64,000 nucleotides of DNA from an uncultured bacterium (GTDB lineage: Bacteria > Verrucomicrobiota > Verrucomicrobiia > Limisphaerales > UBA8199). A model generated the notes under the pieces. It ran no database searches. It saw only the letters and a program-made list of their open reading frames with translations, and was not told the origin of the DNA. Location of the stretch: NCBI GenBank assembly GCA_963713735.1, contig CAVQND010000024.1:77556-141555 (forward strand). The letters run 5' to 3'. Below, piece after piece: positions 6,005 through 59,385 of the stretch (position 1 is the stretch's first letter; each line of letters opens with the position of its first letter). The position numbers were made by a program, and so were the translations under genes.

Positions 6005-6292
6005 GCGGGTTCAGAACAAAGTTTTTCCACAATTGTCCACCGACGCGGCAGGCGGAGGCTTGACATTGGCGGCTCTGGCGGACACCCTCGGGGTAGGATT
6101 GTGGCTCGAAAGCTCAGAGTTCGGTATGCTGGAGCGATCTATCACGTGATGAACCGGGGAGATCGGCGGGAGCCGATCTTTAACGATGACCGGGACCGTC
6201 TGTGCATGGGCGCGCCCACGCATGTCGCTGCTCGGCTCCTGCGCCAAAGCAAGAAGCCGGAGAACAGTGAAGAAACTTTGTTCTGACCCCGC
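6005..6292. mobile_element. REP-like inverted-repeat-flanked remnant carrying a RAYT (IS200-like Y1 transposase) N-terminal fragment
   Basis: Left arm gcgggttcagaacaaagttt (6005..6024). Right arm aaactttgttctgaccccgc (6273..6292). The arms are reverse complements apart from one inserted t. Confidence 0.45.
6101..6286 (+). pseudogene. RAYT/IS200-like transposase fragment (first ~33 aa only)
   Basis: MARKLRVRYAGAIYHVMNRGDRREPIFNDDRDR matches the conserved N-terminus of REP-associated tyrosine transposases, which begin MARPLRIEYPGAVYHVTxRGNxRxxIFxDDxDR. The rest of the ORF is unrelated. Confidence 0.5.
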
Positions 6293-6521
6293 TATGATTA
6301 TTCCCAAGAAGCCGATCCCACGCATCGCCGAAGCCAAGCCTGAAGACCAGCCGGTCCTGGGCTATCTCCTGCTCAAAGCCGCCGAGGTCGCCGGCAAACT
6401 GGGACTCGGGCGGTCGGGCTTTCGCCTGGTCTTCAACAACGGACCCGACGCCGGCGAAGCGGTGCCGCACCTCCACTGCCATATCCTGGGAGGCCGCCAG
6501 CTTGGCTGGCCGCCCGGTTGA
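6186..6521 (+). CDS. HIT-family (HinT-like) protein, N-terminally truncated. The homologous part starts at about 6290.
   Basis: C-terminal GFRLVFNNGPDAGEAVPHLHCHILGGRQL carries the histidine triad. The first ~35 aa of the ORF are Arg-rich non-HIT sequence. The canonical N-terminal nucleotide-binding region is absent. Confidence 0.5.
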   Translation: MTGTVCAWARPRMSLLGSCAKARSRRTVKKLCSDPAMIIPKKPIPRIAEAKPEDQPVLGYLLLKAAEVAGKLGLGRSGFRLVFNNGPDAGEAVPHLHCHILGGRQLGWPPG

Positions 6522-6965
6522 GCAGAGCCTGTCCGAAAAGCCCGGCGGACGGGTGACCTGGTCGCGACCTTTGTCGCAACCTTTGTCAAAGTGGTCGTGT
6601 TTCGACAAAGTTGGCGACGAAGGTTGCGACAAAGGACCAGAATCGGAGCTTTTGGGATAGGCTCTAAGCAGCGGCTGGGGGCACAGAAGGGGGCACAAGG
6701 CGCGGGCATACCGCGCACCTCAAGGGCTCCGCCAGTTCGAGGGCTGGTGGGCTATCGCGAAGCGTTTGGAGTGCGCGGAGCTTGCTCCCGCTTTTGTGCG
6801 CCCCGGCCAATTCGATAGCGCCAGCAAGCTGGACGCACTCCATACGCTTCGCGAGTCTGGGCGCCAGCAGCCGACCCAACGCGTCCAGCAGGCTGCGCCC
6901 TCTGACAAGAAAACCGGAATTAATCCTTGCGCGAGCGTTTAACAGAGCGCAACCGATGGGTTCGT

Positions 6966-51950: not shown

Positions 51951-52026
51951 AATCCTAATCCTAATCCTAATCCTAATCCTAATCCTAATCCTAATCCTAA
52001 TCCTAATCCTAATCCTAATCCTAATC
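51951..52026. repeat. (AATCCT/CCTAAT) x about 12.7 perfect hexanucleotide microsatellite
   Basis: aatcctaatcctaatcct... 76 bp without interruption. Lies between convergent genes. Confidence 0.9.
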
Positions 52027-52139: not shown

Positions 52140-53927
52140 TCACGGCCAGCGCAGGCGATAGAACCGGGTCTGATAATTCGTCCACCAGGGATCGCTGAAG
52201 TAGGACGAGCCGCTGCTGAGGGTGTTCGTGGCCAGTGGAGACCAAGTGGGATTGGCCAGATTAGTCGTGGCCTCGACCACGACGACAATACTAGGTGTGC
52301 CGGTGATGTTGAAGCCAAACCGGTTCGCCCGGACACCGAAGCTGGCATCCCTGGTCTGCACCTGGGGGGTCCACAGCACGGTCGGGCGACCGCCAAACGT
52401 CGGGCCCCAGCCCGTGGTCCCAGGCAAGTAATAGATGGTCGCATTGTTGTCGCCTGAGAACACAGAGTTGCCATTGAGACTGGGGGCGTTACCCTTGAAA
52501 TAGGCCCCTGTCAGGTTGGGGCAGAGCCAGAACGCCTGGTCGAAGATGTTGGTGACGCTGTTGGGGATCGTTACCGTGATCAGGTGTTCGTCGCCTGCGA
52601 ACGCATCGTCCCCGATGTTGCTGACGCTATTAGGGATGCTGTAGGAGCTTCCGGCTTCGCCTCCTGGGTATTGAATGAGCAAGGTCCGGTTCTTGTCGAA
52701 CAACGCCCCATCCACACTGCTATAGACGGAATTGAGTGCATCCACCGTGATCGCTGTCAGGCTGTGGCAGCGACAGAACGCCATGTCCCCGATGCTGGTA
52801 ACATTGCTGGGGATCGTGACGCTGGCCAGGCCGCAGCCATAGAACGCAAAGTCCCCAATGCTGGTGACGTTGTTGGGGATCGTGACGCTGGTCAGGCTGC
52901 TGAGGTAGAACGCATGGTCGAAGATGTTGGTGACGCTGCTGGGGATCGTGTAACCTCCAACTTTACCTGGCGGGTATTGAATGAGCGCGGTCTGGCTCTT
53001 GTCGAACAAGACCCCATCCAGACTGCTATAGATGGGATTGAGGGCATCCACCGTGATGGCCGTCACGCTCCTGCAGCCACAGAACGCATCGTTCCCGATG
53101 CCAGTGACACTTTTGGGGATTGTGATTTGGGTCAGGCTGGTGCAGCCATAGAACGCCCATTCCCCGATGCTGGTGACGCTGTTGGGGATCGTGACGCTGG
53201 TTAGGCCGGTGCAAAACGAGAACGCATCGTTCCCGATGCTGGTGACGCTGCTGGGTATCGTGATGCTGGTCAGGCCGGTGCAGTCATAGAACGCCTCCGT
53301 CCCGATGTTGGTGACGCTGTTGGGGATCGCGTAGGAGGTTCCGGCTTTGCGTTGCGGGTATCGGATGAGGCTGGTCTGGCTTTCATTGAACAAAACCCCA
53401 TTCACACTGGCATAAGTGGAATTGAGGGGATCCACTGTAATGGCTGTCAGGCTCGTGCAGCCGGAGAACGCCTCGTTCCCGATCCTGGTGACACTTTTGG
53501 GTATCGTGATTTTGGTCAGGCTGGCGCAGTCATAGAATGCCCCTTCCCCGATGCTGGTGACGCTGCTGGGGATCGTGACGCTGGTTAGGCTGGTGCAGTA
53601 ATAAAACGCCCAGTCCCCCATGCTGGTGACGCTTTTGGGGATCGTCACGCTGGTCAGGCTGGTGCAGCTTGAGAACGCGTACTGTCCGATGCTGGTGACC
53701 GGCAGGCCATTGACGGCGCTCGGAATGGTCAGCGCGCCGCCAGGACCAGTGTATCCCGTGATGGTGATCGCGCCGTTATTGGTCGTGCAACTGAATTGGG
53801 CTTGCACGACGCCAGTCGGCGCCAACAGCAAGAGCACCGGCAGCAGCCTCGTGGCGCAGGCAGTTGTTAAGCGCCCGGCCATCGTCTTCGGGCAAGTCGT
53901 TCTCTCACTGAGGGTTTGGGTTTTCAT
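52140..53927 (-). CDS. Secreted BspA-type leucine-rich-repeat (LRR_5) protein
   Basis: Signal peptide LLPVLLLLAPTGVVQA. At least 15 repeats of about 23 aa (IPSSVTSIGxxAFxxCTSLTSVTIP). Confidence 0.75.
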   Translation of the reverse strand: MKTQTLSERTTCPKTMAGRLTTACATRLLPVLLLLAPTGVVQAQFSCTTNNGAITITGYTGPGGALTIPSAVNGLPVTSIGQYAFSSCTSLTSVTIPKSVTSMGDWAFYYCTSLTSVTIPSSVTSIGEGAFYDCASLTKITIPKSVTRIGNEAFSGCTSLTAITVDPLNSTYASVNGVLFNESQTSLIRYPQRKAGTSYAIPNSVTNIGTEAFYDCTGLTSITIPSSVTSIGNDAFSFCTGLTSVTIPNSVTSIGEWAFYGCTSLTQITIPKSVTGIGNDAFCGCRSVTAITVDALNPIYSSLDGVLFDKSQTALIQYPPGKVGGYTIPSSVTNIFDHAFYLSSLTSVTIPNNVTSIGDFAFYGCGLASVTIPSNVTSIGDMAFCRCHSLTAITVDALNSVYSSVDGALFDKNRTLLIQYPGGEAGSSYSIPNSVSNIGDDAFAGDEHLITVTIPNSVTNIFDQAFWLCPNLTGAYFKGNAPSLNGNSVFSGDNNATIYYLPGTTGWGPTFGGRPTVLWTPQVQTRDASFGVRANRFGFNITGTPSIVVVVEATTNLANPTWSPLATNTLSSGSSYFSDPWWTNYQTRFYRLRWP

Positions 53928-54827
53928 GGTTTTCGACCTAGCGGAGTTGATAGCTGATGGGAGCTGCTCTTTGACGCGCCGCATCATTGCGGCTGCGCGG
54001 GTGAAAGAGAATTGGTTCCTGGTCGCGCTCATGTTGAAAGACGCTCCTGGCCGAGGAGCGCACCCATTTGGCCGAACGCTTGAGCAGTCGCCACATGCCC
54101 GCCCAAAACCGATCTTGTCGTCGCCACTGCCAATTCATCAGCAACTGGCTCCCCACCAGACCGTCGTCATTATTGAACGGTTTGTCAGCATTCCTGATGC
54201 CGGAGTTCAAAGGTTAGAGAAAGTTGTTGGGGGATAACGGATTAGCGAAACTCTCCTCCGGTGGAAACCCATCATGCTGTGCCAGAATGGCAGCCTCAGT
54301 GCCACTGTGGCATACGTGCCTCAGCGCGTCAGATCGTCGCCCAGTTAATCAGATTGTATTATTTTATTGACGGCGGCGGTTGTTGGGGGAGCGATGGAGT
54401 CGCGGCTGCGAGACAGCGGGGCCGCTGAGTTCATCAAGGCGGTGGAGCATGGCTGGTGCCTCTCCCCGAGGGAGAGGGGCGCTGCCAGGGCCGTCCCTCA
54501 ATCTGGATTCCGCTGAAAAACCCCCTGTTTTTGAAGATGAGCAAAGATGCATGAAAAGTGTCGGGAATTCTTACGCGCTAATTTGGTCTGTACGCGATTT
54601 GAATGATCAAGGGATACATCGGAGATGGTCTTTTTCACTGTCTCTTTTTGATCAGAGGGGTTTTTCAGCAGAATCAATCTGATTAACTGACCCCTGCTAT
54701 GGGGTGGACTGGCAAGGCTGCCGCCGCATCAGGCCCCAGCCGTGCCAATCGCCTTTCCATCATCGGTCTTAAACTCGCGAATAATTTTTGCTTGATTTTT
54801 AGGACTGCTTGGGCTGCACTCCAGCCC

Positions 54828-55286
54828 ATGCAACTCAAAGTGGCACTCTCGCTGGCCCTGCTGGCGATTTCAGCCTTGGCTGCGGAGTCCTCAACTTATG
54901 GGCAGCGGATTGTGGCGGCGGTCCTGATGGGGGAAGCCTGGGGCGACGGCGAGATCGGCATGACCGCGGTGGCCGAAGTCATTCACAACCGGGCAGAAAA
55001 GACCGCCAAGACACCGTTGGCGGTCGTGCTCAAGAAGGGCGAGTTCTCATCGCTGAGGCGCGCGACGCCGGAGGCGCTTTACCAGAAGTTCTGCCGAAAG
55101 AGGGATTTCCAGACGGCCCTTCGCATCGCCAAGACCTGCTACAACACACCGGAGAAGCTGCCCAACATCACCAGGGGCGCGATTTACTATGACCATAGGA
55201 GGAACCGTCCGCCCTGGCTCGGTGAAGTGCGGCTTGTGGCCTGCGTGGGCAACCAGAATTTTTACGTTCCGAAAGATGCGCATTAA
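54828..55286 (+). CDS. SleB/CwlJ-like cell-wall hydrolase domain protein, secreted
   Basis: Signal peptide MQLKVALSLALLAISALAA. AAVLMGEAWGDGEIGMTAVAEVIHNR resembles the Hydrolase_2 family. Confidence 0.55.
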   Translation: MQLKVALSLALLAISALAAESSTYGQRIVAAVLMGEAWGDGEIGMTAVAEVIHNRAEKTAKTPLAVVLKKGEFSSLRRATPEALYQKFCRKRDFQTALRIAKTCYNTPEKLPNITRGAIYYDHRRNRPPWLGEVRLVACVGNQNFYVPKDAH

Positions 55287-56027
55287 CGATTGACTCGGCA
55301 GGCGGCGGCGCGCCGAAAGCAGTTTCCTGCCAGAGTTTTTCGTTGATGATGAGACTCGACTCCGCCTTCCCCGACACCGGCCCGGTGGAGTATCTGACCG
55401 GCTTGCGCTTCATTGACGACCTCGTCGTCGGCGGCTGGCATCTGGACGCCGAAGGGATGCTGCCCAGTTCCGGACCGGCCGGGCTTGGGGGTGTCACTGA
55501 ACCCGGAGGCGCCGGCGAAATACACGCGCGGTGAGAAGCTGCTGGAGTAGTTCACAGCCGATGTCCCTTGAGCCGCTTCCTCCAATGCGCCATCGAGACG
55601 CCCCGCTCCCGGCAACTCATCTCCGGTGGCGCCACCAACCACAGCCGGGTGACGGTGGAGTTCAAGAAAGGTGAACTCGCATTCAAGACGAAGGCGGCAA
55701 AGAACTCCAGGCCCGCGCGTGCCACTCTGCGCCCTTTGCCGTCTGCAAGCAAAGACTCGACATCTCCCAGTTCAGGAGCGACATTCCGTGCGATGCGATG
55801 CGGTTTCCAAACAGTGATTTGGGGGCGCCAGATTGACGATCTCGATCTGGTCCTCGATCAGATCGTGGCCTGCGGCTACGAAGGCGTCGAAATAGCGCAG
55901 AGTCCTCGAGACATTCTCGTGTCCGGTAAGCTCGTGAACAGGGGTGACCCGACCAAGTTCACGATCGTCTTGCCGGAATCCCTGCAACATGTCCCACCAG
56001 CACGGCTCTTGGCTGCCAGATAGGATC

Positions 56028-56465
56028 ATGAAGAGATTGCTATTCATTGACGACGAAAGGCTGCCCATGGAGTCTTACGAGAAGGTTCTCAAGCGGAAGG
56101 GCTACGAGGTCGTGAGGTGCTACACGGTTGACGAAGCTATCGCGTTTGCGCGCTCCAATCCCCCGTCTGTTGACGCGATCATCCTTGACCTTATGATGCC
56201 TGCGGGTGAAGCGTTTAGGAACGAGGATACGGAAGGTGGACTCAAGACGGGCGTGCTGCTTTACCGCGAACTCCGCAAGGACCTGCCGAATGCGCCCGTG
56301 CTTGTGCTCACGAACTATCCGCAACCGGAGATTCTGAGTGCTCTTCCCAGTGGTGATAAGAGGGTATCGGTGAAGACCAAGTATTCGTGCCCCCCCTTGG
56401 AACTGCCAGAGGTGCTGGAAGCTCTTTGGAGCAACGTCGCGAAAGAGATGGAGAATCCTGAATGA
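56028..56465 (+). CDS. Stand-alone receiver (REC, CheY-like) domain protein
   Basis: MKRLLFIDDE. Acceptor D in AIILDLMMPAGE. Conserved T in LVLTNY. Lower local GC. Confidence 0.7.
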   Translation: MKRLLFIDDERLPMESYEKVLKRKGYEVVRCYTVDEAIAFARSNPPSVDAIILDLMMPAGEAFRNEDTEGGLKTGVLLYRELRKDLPNAPVLVLTNYPQPEILSALPSGDKRVSVKTKYSCPPLELPEVLEALWSNVAKEMENPE

Positions 56466-57151
56466 ATGTCACACGGAATTTCGCAGAAATCACGAATCGA
56501 ACGCTCGCGGAGTGCGAAGCCGAGGTCCGGCGCCTCAGCGAGATCCTCCTGTCTCCGCACACAGCACCTCCGGGCAGCCCTGAAGCTCGAGAAAAGACCG
56601 CCGCCATGTTCGAAGAGTGGGCCCTGACTGTCCTCGTCAGGGTGTTCGGAGGCGACTGCGTGCCAGCCCAGAAGCCCTACCTCATCGAAAAGGCTGCAAC
56701 GTATGCTTCTGACAGGCTCATTCCGGCCTTCTGGCGCCTTCTCGATCCGAGGTATCCCAAGGAGATCAGGAGCGCGGCGCGCAGGGGAATGCTCGTGATC
56801 CTGCGGAGGAGCCTTTCCGGTGACTTGCAGGAGGGCGAGCTTTCCGAAGGAACAGGAAGGGCGAAGGACGATTCATTTCTGCCCGAGGCAGTGGCTGCGG
56901 GATGGGAGGAGCCTTCGGAGCGCCGGTTCCGCGATTTGGTGCGACTGGAAGCGAGGGGCACAATTTCTCTTGCGGAACAGGAGGAACTCGAAAGGTTGGC
57001 CGGACTTCGACGGAAGGCCGTGTCGCCGATGCCAGCCGATGAAGCCGTCCTGGAAGAGCAGCGGCTCACCGCGCTGAGGAAAGTCTTAGGCGCGTTGGAA
57101 GACTATGCCCGGAGTTTTGACACCACGGATTCGTCGCGGCCCAGCGCCTGA
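56462..57151 (+). CDS. Hypothetical protein (229 aa), translationally coupled between the REC and HNH genes
   Basis: 4-nt overlap with the REC gene. Overlaps the HNH gene. Helical and charged. No recognised motifs. Confidence 0.4.
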   Translation: MNVTRNFAEITNRTLAECEAEVRRLSEILLSPHTAPPGSPEAREKTAAMFEEWALTVLVRVFGGDCVPAQKPYLIEKAATYASDRLIPAFWRLLDPRYPKEIRSAARRGMLVILRRSLSGDLQEGELSEGTGRAKDDSFLPEAVAAGWEEPSERRFRDLVRLEARGTISLAEQEELERLAGLRRKAVSPMPADEAVLEEQRLTALRKVLGALEDYARSFDTTDSSRPSA

Positions 57152-57704
57152 CTGCGTCTTGACGCCTCGGAACTGCAGGGATGCCCTGCCCGAGCTGCGA
57201 CGCGATTTTCAGGACCGCTGTGCTTACTCGATGCAGCACTTGCGGTACGCGGGCGGCCTTACATGCATGGAGGTGGATCACTTCGATCCAGGCAAGAGGG
57301 ACGATCCCGTCCAGGACTACGACAACCTCTTTCTGGCCTCTCGCCACTGCAACAGGGCCAAGGGGACCTTCTGGCCGACCGACGAGGAGGCAGCCCAAGC
57401 CATACGCTTGCTCAACCCCTGCAAAGAGACGGATTACGGCGAGCACATTTTTGAAGACTCTGTGACGAGCAAACTGGTGGGAGCAACACCCCCTGGCCGC
57501 ACCCAAATTCGAGTCTGCGACCTGAACGCGCCGCACCTCGTGGAGGAGCGAAAGCTCAGGGCTGACATTCTGGCGATGTTGGCCAAGCTGACCAGCAAGG
57601 CGAGGTCCAAAAACGTCGGCCTACCCTCCGAACTCTTGGCAAAGGTGGCCGAGGCCACGGACTTCATGATTCCGCCAATTCCTCCCCCGCCTTCTTCTTC
57701 CTGA
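57105..57704 (+). CDS. HNH endonuclease-domain protein
   Basis: CAYSMQHL...CMEVDHFDPGKRDDPVQDYDNLFLASRHCNRAKG (C..C / H-N..N / C..C pattern). Confidence 0.6.
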   Translation: MPGVLTPRIRRGPAPDCVLTPRNCRDALPELRRDFQDRCAYSMQHLRYAGGLTCMEVDHFDPGKRDDPVQDYDNLFLASRHCNRAKGTFWPTDEEAAQAIRLLNPCKETDYGEHIFEDSVTSKLVGATPPGRTQIRVCDLNAPHLVEERKLRADILAMLAKLTSKARSKNVGLPSELLAKVAEATDFMIPPIPPPPSSS

Positions 57705-57888
57705 GCCGTGCGGATGGGGGCTCGGCGTCTTTGAATCAGCGGCGCAGCCATGGCGTTGGCCACCAGTTGCTCAGCGTAACGGTGGTTCTATGCATTGCCG
57801 GTCTGGCGCTTGACTTGCAGGCACATGTGCTTCGTCAAGAATCGACTTTCGCTGCATTCGCTCGCGGAAGAAGTCACCCGCAACTGCG

Positions 57889-59385
57889 CTACGACTTCCT
57901 CAGCGGCGGTCCGGGCGCAAGAAATGGACGGCTTGCATCCACACGCAGCCAGGCCAGCGCGCCGAGAAAGTAGGAGGCGGCAAACACCACGAACACCGCC
58001 TTCCAATTCCAAAGGATAGCGACCTTGGCGGCGACCAGCGGGCTGAGCATGGCGCCGATGGCGCCCGCCGAATTCATACAGCCGCTCACCGTCCCGGCGC
58101 AACGTCCGCCAATGTCCACCGAGGCGGACCACATAGCCGGCAGGGCCAGGTCCTGAAAAGCCGAGGCGATGCAAATGATGAGGATGACCGGCCAAGGAGA
58201 ATTGGTGCGCGAGACCGCCAGTGCGCAAGCGGCGGCTACGCCCAAGCCAATAGCCCCCTGCAGGCTGCGCCCCCAGCGCTGGCTCCCCGTGGAGCCGATC
58301 AACACGTCGGACAGCCGCCCCCCCGCCAGGCAGGCCAGGCCACCGACCAACAACGGCAACCCGGTCATGATTTCCGAATGGGAATAATCCACCTGGAATT
58401 GGTCCTTCAAGTATTTGGGCAGAAAGGTGACGTAGAAGAACCAACTGAAGCTGGCGGTGAACGAAGCCACATACAGCCAGAGCAGGTTCGGCGAGAAAAA
58501 CAGCCGCCCCCACGGAACCTGGGCCGGAGCCTCGTCCTGGTAAATGGACTCCTGCCCGGCGGCTCCGGCGCGGATGAGCGCGCACTCGGCCTGGTTGGCC
58601 GAGGCCTGATCCTCAGGCCGATCCCGGAACCAAACAAAGAAGAGCAGCGCCCACAACATGCCCGCTGCGCCCAGAATCCAGAACGCGCGCTGCCAGCCTC
58701 CCGCCACCACCACGAGGCTGCCGATGATGGTTGGCGCAATGGCTCCGCCGAACCTGCTGGAGAGCCAAATTGCGCCCTGCGCCGCCCCACGCTCGCGGAA
58801 GGGGAACCAGCGGCCCAGCGCCCGCGCGATGTTCGGATACGCCCCCGCCTCGCCCAGGCCAAAAAGAAAGCGGACCAGCACCATCGCGCCAACAAATATC
58901 CAAGGTTCGGGGCGGGGAAAAAACCAGCCCGCCAGGGCCCTCACCCCGCCCGTCAGCGCCGTGAACAAAGACCACCAAAGCACAATCAGCAGGATAATGG
59001 CGCGCGGGCGGAACCGGTCTGCCAGCCAGCCCCCGGGCAAACCGAACAAAACGTACCCGAGCACAAAAGCTGAGAATACCCAGCTCATTCGTTCGGTCGC
59101 GCCGTCCTGGGCCAGTTTGGCCCGGGCCTCACTGTCGTTGGCCAGACCCTTTGCCGCCAGCGTCCGCTCGTCGCGAGCCGAGAGCCGATCGAAATTGAGG
59201 TCACGCTCGATCTCGCCCTGCACGCGCATGATGCAGATGCGGTCGAGGTAGGTCAAGCAGGCCAGCGAACAAAGCAGGACCAGCACCAGGTAGCGCACGC
59301 GGGTCGGCCGGACGCCGGTGAGACCGGCAGGCGCGTTTTCGGTATTCGACTGGTGCTGAATAGTCAGATCGATTTTTGCCCCCAT
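57889..59385 (-). CDS. MFS transporter
   Basis: Twelve-TM profile. GLPGGWLADRFRPRA MFS motif. Confidence 0.8.
   Translation of the reverse strand: MGAKIDLTIQHQSNTENAPAGLTGVRPTRVRYLVLVLLCSLACLTYLDRICIMRVQGEIERDLNFDRLSARDERTLAAKGLANDSEARAKLAQDGATERMSWVFSAFVLGYVLFGLPGGWLADRFRPRAIILLIVLWWSLFTALTGGVRALAGWFFPRPEPWIFVGAMVLVRFLFGLGEAGAYPNIARALGRWFPFRERGAAQGAIWLSSRFGGAIAPTIIGSLVVVAGGWQRAFWILGAAGMLWALLFFVWFRDRPEDQASANQAECALIRAGAAGQESIYQDEAPAQVPWGRLFFSPNLLWLYVASFTASFSWFFYVTFLPKYLKDQFQVDYSHSEIMTGLPLLVGGLACLAGGRLSDVLIGSTGSQRWGRSLQGAIGLGVAAACALAVSRTNSPWPVILIICIASAFQDLALPAMWSASVDIGGRCAGTVSGCMNSAGAIGAMLSPLVAAKVAILWNWKAVFVVFAASYFLGALAWLRVDASRPFLAPGPPLRKS

Follow-up and report, generated by a model that had tools for sequence, protein, structure and literature searches.

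A receiver, a putative adaptor and a PtuB-like HNH nuclease beside a histidine kinase gene remnant in an uncultured Limisphaerales bacterium

The window analysed here, 64,000 nucleotides (nt) of contig CAVQND010000024.1 from an uncultured bacterium of the Limisphaerales (GenBank assembly GCA_963713735.1), carries at positions 56028 to 57704 a compact set of three genes for a stand-alone receiver (REC), a middle protein and an HNH nuclease. An earlier note on this DNA, made from the sequence alone, had suggested that the three could form a phosphorelay-gated nuclease. We give an even chance to a more specific reading, namely that the set is what is left, after loss of the kinase, of a four-gene module in which a two-component system was coupled to a PtuB-like nuclease via an adaptor. 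The fourth element, overlooked by the earlier note, is what remains of a histidine kinase gene (55793–56023). The features are as follows, with lengths in amino acids (aa).

55793..56023, plus strand: scar of the kinase gene (tblastn and BLASTP against the kinases of relatives).
56028..56465, plus strand: stand-alone receiver (REC), 145 aa from its ATG (Pfam Response_reg).
56462..56465, plus strand: ATGA overlap of 4 nt between the REC stop and the middle-gene start, also present in loci L001 and L006.
56462..57151, plus strand: middle protein, 229 aa, read as a two-part adaptor (its C-terminal domain, or C-domain, is homologous to a family of HNH partner proteins).
57105..57151, plus strand: 47-nt region read in two frames, as the middle-gene tail and as the conserved N-terminus of HNH, with the same length in L001, L005 and L006.
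57105..57704, plus strand: PtuB-like HNH nuclease, 199 aa (PADLOC, Pfam, AlphaFold model).

The kinase is best seen in related loci, which we refer to by L numbers and in which the REC subfamily follows a kinase with a TIM barrel and a GAF domain. In L005, on a 5.8-Mb Verrucomicrobiae chromosome and with an HNH protein 79% identical to that of the window, an 880-aa kinase lies directly 5' of REC and is composed of a xylose-isomerase-like TIM barrel (AP_endonuc_2), GAF, HisKA and HATPase_c. The kinase of L006, where the HNH protein is 71% identical to the window's, has ~880–910 aa and is 68% identical to that of L005 over 878 residues. Altogether, a kinase of ~860–910 aa stands directly 5' of REC in four relatives (L005, L006, L091 and L093); the last two, found in a metagenome scan with the REC subfamily, combine the same kinase architecture with a REC, a middle protein of 243–271 aa and a member of a second family of PtuB-like HNH proteins that is more distant. 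Partial kinases lie 5' of REC in L081, L087, L088 and L089, and L095 has a kinase homologue ~600 nt upstream whose alignment to the full kinases ends before the HATPase region.

In the window, 55793–56023 is a 76-codon open reading frame (ORF) that stops 4 nt before the REC start codon. Residues 2–44 of the L004 kinase match 55793–55921 (67% identity, E 5e-14, tblastn). By BLASTP, scar residues 1–43 match residues 1–43 of the L091 kinase (60%, E 1e-18) and scar residues 46–69 match its residues 832–855 (E 2e-4), while scar residues 46–68 match residues 384–406 of the L081 kinase (52%, E 2e-6). The first segment is the start of the TIM barrel and the second the last ~25 residues of the kinase, at the HATPase_c end, and both are collinear and in the same frame. 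The alignments thus identify the scar as the product of an in-frame internal deletion of ~790 kinase codons. No other member of the TIM-barrel/GAF kinase family was found in the 64-kb window. The nearest relative, the P0002/L001 lineage (82% identical DNA), is also kinase-less but in another way: its homology with the window sets in precisely at the start codon of REC, upstream of which lies a gene for an M23 peptidase.

That the first gene encodes a CheY-like receiver, as had been claimed, is borne out by a Pfam Response_reg match of 1.5e-9, exceeding the curated cutoff. Its acidic pair (D8/D9), its phospho-acceptor (D54) and the Thr of LVLTN are intact, and all are conserved in the six RECs that were aligned, with a CheY sequence as reference; a 13-residue insertion follows DLMMP. 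Our strongest evidence for joint action of the receiver with the HNH-partner domain is a 231-aa fusion protein of L081: residues 1–130 are a REC that shares 49% identity with that of the window (E 7e-40), residues 157–229 are the partner C-domain (profile E 3e-22), and the N-terminal domain (N-domain) of the adaptor is absent. The fusion gene lies between those of the kinase and of HNH and shares 23 nt with the latter.

The same kinase–REC pair precedes other effectors as well, namely the second PtuB-like HNH family (L091, L093) and a putative hydrolase in L089, which looks like a different effector on the same kinase–REC chassis. A more distant pair adjoins a helicase gene in L005.

L089, 2–4569: kinase (74% identical to that of L005), REC, a 311-aa protein and a 394-aa protein that carries an HxHxDH motif and weakly matches Lamassu LmuA (E 5e-7).
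L005, 10083–13201, minus strand: second kinase–REC pair and a UvrD-type helicase matching Gabija GajB models (E 8e-51).

The second L005 kinase belongs to the same family as the first and is 32% identical to it over a 245-aa C-terminal region; the REC of this pair is of the same subfamily, at 27–33% identity. At L087 (963–2403), a kinase–REC pair precedes genes for two small proteins of 152 and 164 aa, both strongly hydrophobic, that match nothing in Pfam or PADLOC and may represent a membrane effector variant.

The HNH protein of the window gives many matches to PADLOC PtuB models (best 2.2e-14), and a weak, generic one to Pfam HNH (1e-4, 22.7 bits, cutoff 21.4). There are 189 homologues, mostly of ~195–205 aa among the 120 of the 189 listed, in which the catalytic and structural residues C39, H45, D58-H59, N74, C82-N83 and K86 are invariant or nearly so; the window protein keeps them all. 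Its AlphaFold model, built on 78 homologues, has a pLDDT (predicted local distance difference test score) of 96.4. In a Foldseek search of the PDB with this model, the top matches are full-length PtuB chains of the PtuA–PtuB complexes of retrons Ec78, Eco7 and Ec83 (E 9e-5 to 1e-3; template modelling (TM) scores of 0.5–0.63, the best ones 0.57–0.63), at a sequence identity of only 16–22%, and the next are Cas9 HNH domains that cover the catalytic core only. A sequence-profile search of the PDB gave weak matches to Cas9 HNH domains alone and no PtuB, so the PtuB relationship in that database needed the structure model. By homology, the effector would therefore be a PtuB-like HNH nuclease over its whole length.

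The reading frames described earlier hold, with three co-oriented ORFs, overlaps of exactly 4 and 47 nt, and the HNH motifs quoted at the time present in the product of 57105–57704. The public annotation gives the HNH gene 145 aa (P0003) with a start at MEVDHFDP, by which 54 conserved N-terminal residues are lost, including the invariant C39 and H45. Because homologues align from residue 1 and share a conserved N-terminus, PRIxRGPxP, the long start is supported, and with it the 47-nt overlap; the 199-aa form is the one that homologues favour, and the 145-aa call is too short.

Homing endonucleases and restriction enzymes often have HNH domains, and the weak, generic Pfam match would suit an enzyme of that kind that lies beside unrelated genes by chance. 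We give this explanation almost no weight, since the partner gene is conserved and overlapping in ~60 loci, the full-length fold is that of PtuB, and no methyltransferase, intron or intein context was found for the HNH gene. Nor does the HNH family match anything in 50,697 phage records; in plasmids it has six weak matches (~29% identity), cyanobacterial or Bacteroidota, and on these two results a phage or plasmid origin was set aside. The earlier note had held that an HNH protein of a homing or restriction family in an unrelated context would speak against its proposal; a PtuB-like fold and a conserved partner were found instead.

The middle protein was said to lack a recognisable domain, and indeed nothing in Pfam, PADLOC or NCBIfam matches it. 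A search with its full length returned only itself and one relative, few matches being found because the search relies on shared 5-residue words. The low-confidence AlphaFold model of this protein (pLDDT 54.5) is helical throughout, with four N-terminal helices, a disordered linker at ~119–149 and three C-terminal helices, of which the first two (~150–190) reach a pLDDT of ~80–86. Foldseek found nothing in the PDB at E <= 0.001 for this low-confidence model, only generic helical bundles, and a profile search of the PDB with the C-domain gave chance-level matches only.

The N-terminal ~145 residues of the middle proteins of the window, L005 and L006 have no mutual similarity; the kinase, REC, C-domain and HNH of L005 and L006 are 60–74% identical. 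The N-domains of L005 and L006 recur elsewhere: those of L006 and L093 are 54% identical (E 5e-34) while the C-domain and HNH family of L093 differ, and the L005 type recurs in the 311-aa protein of L089 (E 5e-13). The N-domains are real domains, shuffled independently of the C-domain and the effector. We read the middle protein as a two-domain adaptor, with an effector-specific, conserved C-domain (~145–229) that is always found with this HNH family and a variable, lineage-specific N-domain (~1–120).

The suggestion that the middle protein might have a histidine-phosphotransfer (Hpt) or kinase-like fold was followed by predicting its structure and searching the fold, and found no support: the all-helical, low-confidence model had no significant match, and the N-parts are not conserved between lineages. 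There is no Pfam Hpt match and no histidine of the HxxKG type, and the sole N-terminal histidine, H33, lies in a predicted Pro-rich loop; an Hpt role was rejected.

Seen across genomes, the deeply conserved core is the overlapping pair of partner and HNH, not the REC trio. A scan with the HNH profile, with one genome per species, gave 76 loci, nearly all in Verrucomicrobiota with a few in Lentisphaerae, Kiritimatiellae, Poribacteria, Armatimonadetes and Abditibacteria. In ~60 of them a same-strand gene of ~145–175 aa lies directly 5' of HNH, with its stop overlapping the HNH start (by 4–80 nt). The homology of the window's middle protein to this upstream partner is limited to its C-terminal ~80 residues. 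A profile search restricted to the shared C-terminal part, among 1.84 billion cluster representatives, put the partner family at 649 members, mostly of 140–165 aa. Directly 5' of the partner, in 48 of 68 loci, a hidden Markov model finds a third gene, which we call gene A.

L007–L072, e.g. L011 at 6098–6577: gene A, ~165 aa, with motifs FFNRF, HFGL, AEI.L..FS and LLRC...LQ..L...LY.

Gene A has no match in Pfam, PADLOC or the PDB. The widespread cassette is thus gene A–partner–HNH; the pair alone occurs in L082 and L084. In the small clade that includes the window, REC occupies the position of gene A and the partner is longer. Since hhalign gives gene A and REC a probability of homology of 0.2%, homology of the two was rejected, and REC would have taken the place of gene A non-homologously. 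The question whether the trio co-occurs elsewhere has a divided answer: it is a unit in the L001–3 lineage, in L005 and L006, and distantly in L091 and L093, whereas at greater depth the unit is the partner–HNH pair.

Two side observations concern the cassette. In L085 (33–5336), and also in L086, a PIN-domain gene, a 205-aa protein, a short partner of 83 aa and HNH stand in a row, with a convergent downstream gene for a 967-aa SMC_N/AAA_21 ATPase that is PtuA-like by domain type; a weak HetE-N match of the 205-aa protein in a precomputed table was not reproduced on rescan. In L065 (5376–6284), a free-standing xylose-isomerase-like TIM-barrel gene (AP_endonuc_2, 1.5e-29) lies directly 5' of a Phd-like partner gene. 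Its TIM barrel is the same domain as the kinase sensor of the REC clade, which may be coincidence, as 3 of 112 flanking genes carry that domain.

Taken together, the parts suggest the following way of working. The C-domain of the partner would bind HNH and keep it inactive in the manner of an antitoxin. In relatives, the upstream cytoplasmic TIM-barrel/GAF kinase would phosphorylate the receiver, and phosphorylation of D54 would alter how receiver and adaptor engage, by which HNH would be released or permitted. The nuclease would then cut nucleic acid, with growth arrest or defence against an invader as the outcome. The trio of the window probably still works, its receiver being fed by another kinase or by acetyl phosphate, or being active unphosphorylated. 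The phosphorelay-gated nuclease of the earlier note therefore fares differently in its parts: the cognate kinase upstream in relatives and the REC–partner fusion of L081 favour it, whereas the kinase of the window is deleted and its middle protein is no Hpt.

The evidence for an inhibitory role of the partner is suggestive and comes from a distant branch (L065–L070, Poribacteria/Armatimonadetes) that lacks gene A and in which the N-terminal segment of the partner is Phd/YefM-like in all five of five cases (PhdYeFM_antitox, E 1e-5 to 5e-4). Several points weigh against the reading as a whole. All of these Phd/YefM matches are sub-threshold, at 20–25 bits against the Pfam curated cutoff of 29.8; a PDB profile search with the distant-branch partner reaches only E 0.8, to the antitoxin VapB46; and that partner shows no more than modest homology with the C-domain of Verrucomicrobiota (hhalign probability 42%, E 2.6e-4). 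Known PtuAB systems require their partner ATPase for activity, and therefore the partner here could be an activator of HNH rather than an inhibitor. The canonical receiver Lys is out of place: where a K–P pair (CheY K109) would be expected, there is an invariant K at a distance of 5 residues ahead of the conserved Pro. REC identity does not track the type of adaptor N-domain, so that a contact between REC and adaptor is left without support from co-variation. As encoded in the window the relay cannot operate, the kinase being absent; with the kinase deleted, no phosphorelay is encoded locally. Finally, the 112 nearest flanking genes of other genomes contain no defence-island signal, and their Pfam families are housekeeping ones.

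Much of this evidence would also fit a plain toxin–antitoxin-like cassette, in which HNH is the toxin, the middle protein the antitoxin and REC a leftover, the whole being kept by addiction or selfish maintenance. The overlapping partner–HNH pair as the deep unit, its occurrence alone in some loci, the Phd/YefM-like partners of the distant branch, the scattered, non-syntenic genomic contexts of the loci and the absence of a kinase from both the window and the L001 lineage all agree with such a cassette. We consider it unlikely all the same, because a leftover REC sits poorly with the low ratio of nonsynonymous to synonymous substitution rates (dN/dS) of 0.21 that we find for REC between the two kinase-less lineages, with its retained phospho-acceptor residues and stop–start overlap with the middle gene, and with the L081 fusion; gene A, as a third conserved gene in most of the loci, is likewise more than such a pair would call for.

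The dN/dS values bear equally on whether the trio is in use. Against the kinase-less L001, the value for the middle gene is also 0.21, and that of HNH against L005 is 0.15; such values of ~0.2 indicate purifying selection, and the trio looks maintained. It is possible that the kinase loss is recent, and the values also integrate the time before the loss. Base composition gives a mixed picture. The earlier note had the module in a stretch of lower guanine plus cytosine (GC) content, which is true of REC (0.548, the 3rd percentile of equal-sized windows, against 0.62 for the window) and of the stretch just upstream (kinase scar 0.571), but not of the other two genes, which are ordinary for the window (middle gene 0.614, HNH gene 0.605); the whole module, at 0.594, falls at the 15th percentile. 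GC at third codon positions (GC3) is 0.67–0.73 in the module genes and 0.78–0.79 in their neighbours. Such a lower GC3, as in a poorly adapted acquired segment, together with the in-frame loss of most of the kinase and the duplication and transposase damage that surround the L005 copy, could mean that the trio is a decaying, non-functional remnant on its way to pseudogenes. This is improbable in our estimate: all three ORFs are intact, HNH has kept its catalytic residues and REC its phospho-acceptor residues, the 47 nt read in two frames have been retained, and dN/dS against the other kinase-less lineage stays low, even if part of that signal predates the kinase loss.

No named system has this composition, as the earlier note had supposed: PADLOC gives only PtuB-type matches for HNH and nothing for the middle protein, and no kinase–REC–adaptor–HNH system is described in the literature searched, of which our coverage was incomplete. 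By analogy, the module is a cross of Septu and Detocs in its apparent working logic and a member of neither. PtuAB is described as a toxic effector that is held in check until infection (PMC12819146). With Septu and the PtuAB of retrons Ec78 and Eco7, the module shares a PtuB-type HNH protein (TM ~0.6 to chains 9nnb_J, 9vh1_F and 9u9y_H) and a nuclease gene that stands immediately after, and is coupled to, a partner gene. It differs in having no PtuA-type ABC/SMC ATPase, the partner being an all-helical protein of 229 aa (~150 aa in the wider family) with no ATPase motifs, and no ATPase is a conserved neighbour in the 68 loci. Control would also be exerted by a receiver and kinase, and not by ATP or by the multicopy single-stranded DNA of a retron. 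The target of published PtuAB effectors is tRNA-Tyr.

Detocs consists of a kinase (DtcA), a stand-alone receiver (DtcB) and a receiver–effector (DtcC) with swappable effectors (bioRxiv 10.1101/2023.01.24.525353). The relatives of the window resemble it in having a kinase, a stand-alone receiver and an effector aimed at the cell in a single operon, and in the swapping of effectors. The kinase sensor of Detocs is made of TPR repeats, whereas that of the relatives is a TIM barrel with GAF; the Detocs effector is fused to a receiver of its own and is mostly a PNP ATP nucleosidase, whereas here there is one receiver, and HNH is separate, without REC, and would be reached via the adaptor. The L081 fusion joins REC to the adaptor domain and not to the effector, and the window is without a kinase. 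No Detocs-named model is among the PADLOC matches, while a stand-alone REC with its acceptor Asp is present.

Three other comparisons are worth making. The acidic pocket and acceptor Asp of REC are those of a canonical two-component system, of which the cognate HisKA/HATPase_c kinase is deleted in the window. A small partner followed by a toxin-like enzyme in an overlapping frame recalls type II toxin–antitoxin systems of the Phd/YefM kind; unlike these, the partner in the window has no Phd/YefM or recognisable DNA-binding domain in Pfam, there are a third component (REC or gene A) and a fourth (the kinase), and the C-terminus of the partner is conserved, whereas in classic antitoxins it is usually the variable part. 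Some Shedu variants, finally, likewise couple an N-terminal receiver domain to a defence nuclease. REC matches the first ~100 positions of the PADLOC SduA model PDLC00405 (E 1.5e-9), and because it matches the N-terminus of SduA the coupling of receiver and nuclease has a precedent; Shedu differs in that here no DUF4263/SduA domain is found by Pfam, the receiver is separate, and the nuclease is an HNH and not a PD-(D/E)xK enzyme.

Genomic context neither supports nor refutes a role in defence, since there is no defence enrichment around the loci. The few of the 112 flanking genes that match PADLOC do so mostly with generic AAA, helicase and methyltransferase models, and the flanks of the window are housekeeping genes, for a cell-wall hydrolase, an MFS transporter, a creatininase and ATP synthase. 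L005 is the exception, with transposases on the flanks of its copy, a partial duplicate, and the second kinase–REC pair adjoining. The duplicate (L005 8270–8810, equal to L004 7141–7681) contains the partner C-domain and the first ~78 HNH codons and is cut off beside a DDE_3 transposase gene; a DDE_5 transposase lies upstream of the module.

Housekeeping surroundings may instead point to a housekeeping output, in which a metabolite-sensing two-component pathway controls a nuclease for DNA repair, recombination or nucleic-acid turnover. TIM barrels of the sugar-isomerase/AP-endonuclease type and GAF domains are typical small-molecule and metabolic sensor folds, which suits the sensor of the relatives' kinase. 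The HNH family has no match in the phage collection, and so shows no link to phages. We nevertheless regard this explanation as distinctly improbable. The effector is PtuB-like, the adaptor N-domains are hypervariable, the module occurs patchily and has transposases close by in L005, and the kinase–REC pair is combined with exchangeable effectors (HNH proteins of two families and a weakly LmuA-like hydrolase, with a related pair beside a GajB-like helicase). Swapping of effectors is typical of conflict systems.

A wider reading, which we offer tentatively, is that Verrucomicrobiota and relatives possess a modular two-component family for immunity or conflict. In it, a cytoplasmic TIM-barrel/GAF kinase and a dedicated stand-alone receiver would act on interchangeable effectors via an adaptor of two domains, a C-domain specific for the effector and a hypervariable N-domain, and the whole would be built on the older gene A–partner–HNH cassette; the window would then hold a receiver, adaptor and nuclease kept after the loss of the kinase. 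The effectors may comprise the two PtuB-like HNH families, the putative HxHxDH hydrolase and perhaps the UvrD-type helicase. The new elements are gene A, the family of HNH partners and the logic of the adaptor.

If these inferences hold, the family would join Detocs as a second architecture in which two-component phosphotransfer triggers an effector directly and not transcription. It would differ from Detocs in its separate adaptor, in a PtuB-type nuclease that lacks the usual ATPase, and in an enzyme-like TIM-barrel sensor. Two uncharacterised families, the HNH partner and gene A, are brought out as well; together they make up a common cassette of a phylum about whose defence repertoire little is known. 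As natural variants, the trio without a kinase and the REC–adaptor fusion make the wiring directly testable.

Some further features of the surrounding DNA may be recorded. No terminator-like site was found in 55200–58000, where the sole promoter-like site falls inside REC, and the window contains no tRNA genes. Upstream of the module, at 52140–54032 on the minus strand, lies a gene for a 630-aa BspA-type leucine-rich-repeat (LRR) protein (Pfam LRR_5, 5.7e-96), the DNA of which is repetitive inside, with periods of 69, 138, 306 and 384 bp at ~80% identity in 52666–53699. Just 3' of this gene, in the intergenic stretch 51951–52026, is a perfect tandem repeat, (AATCCT) x 12.7, with long shadow ORFs that contain runs of GL and PN dipeptides.

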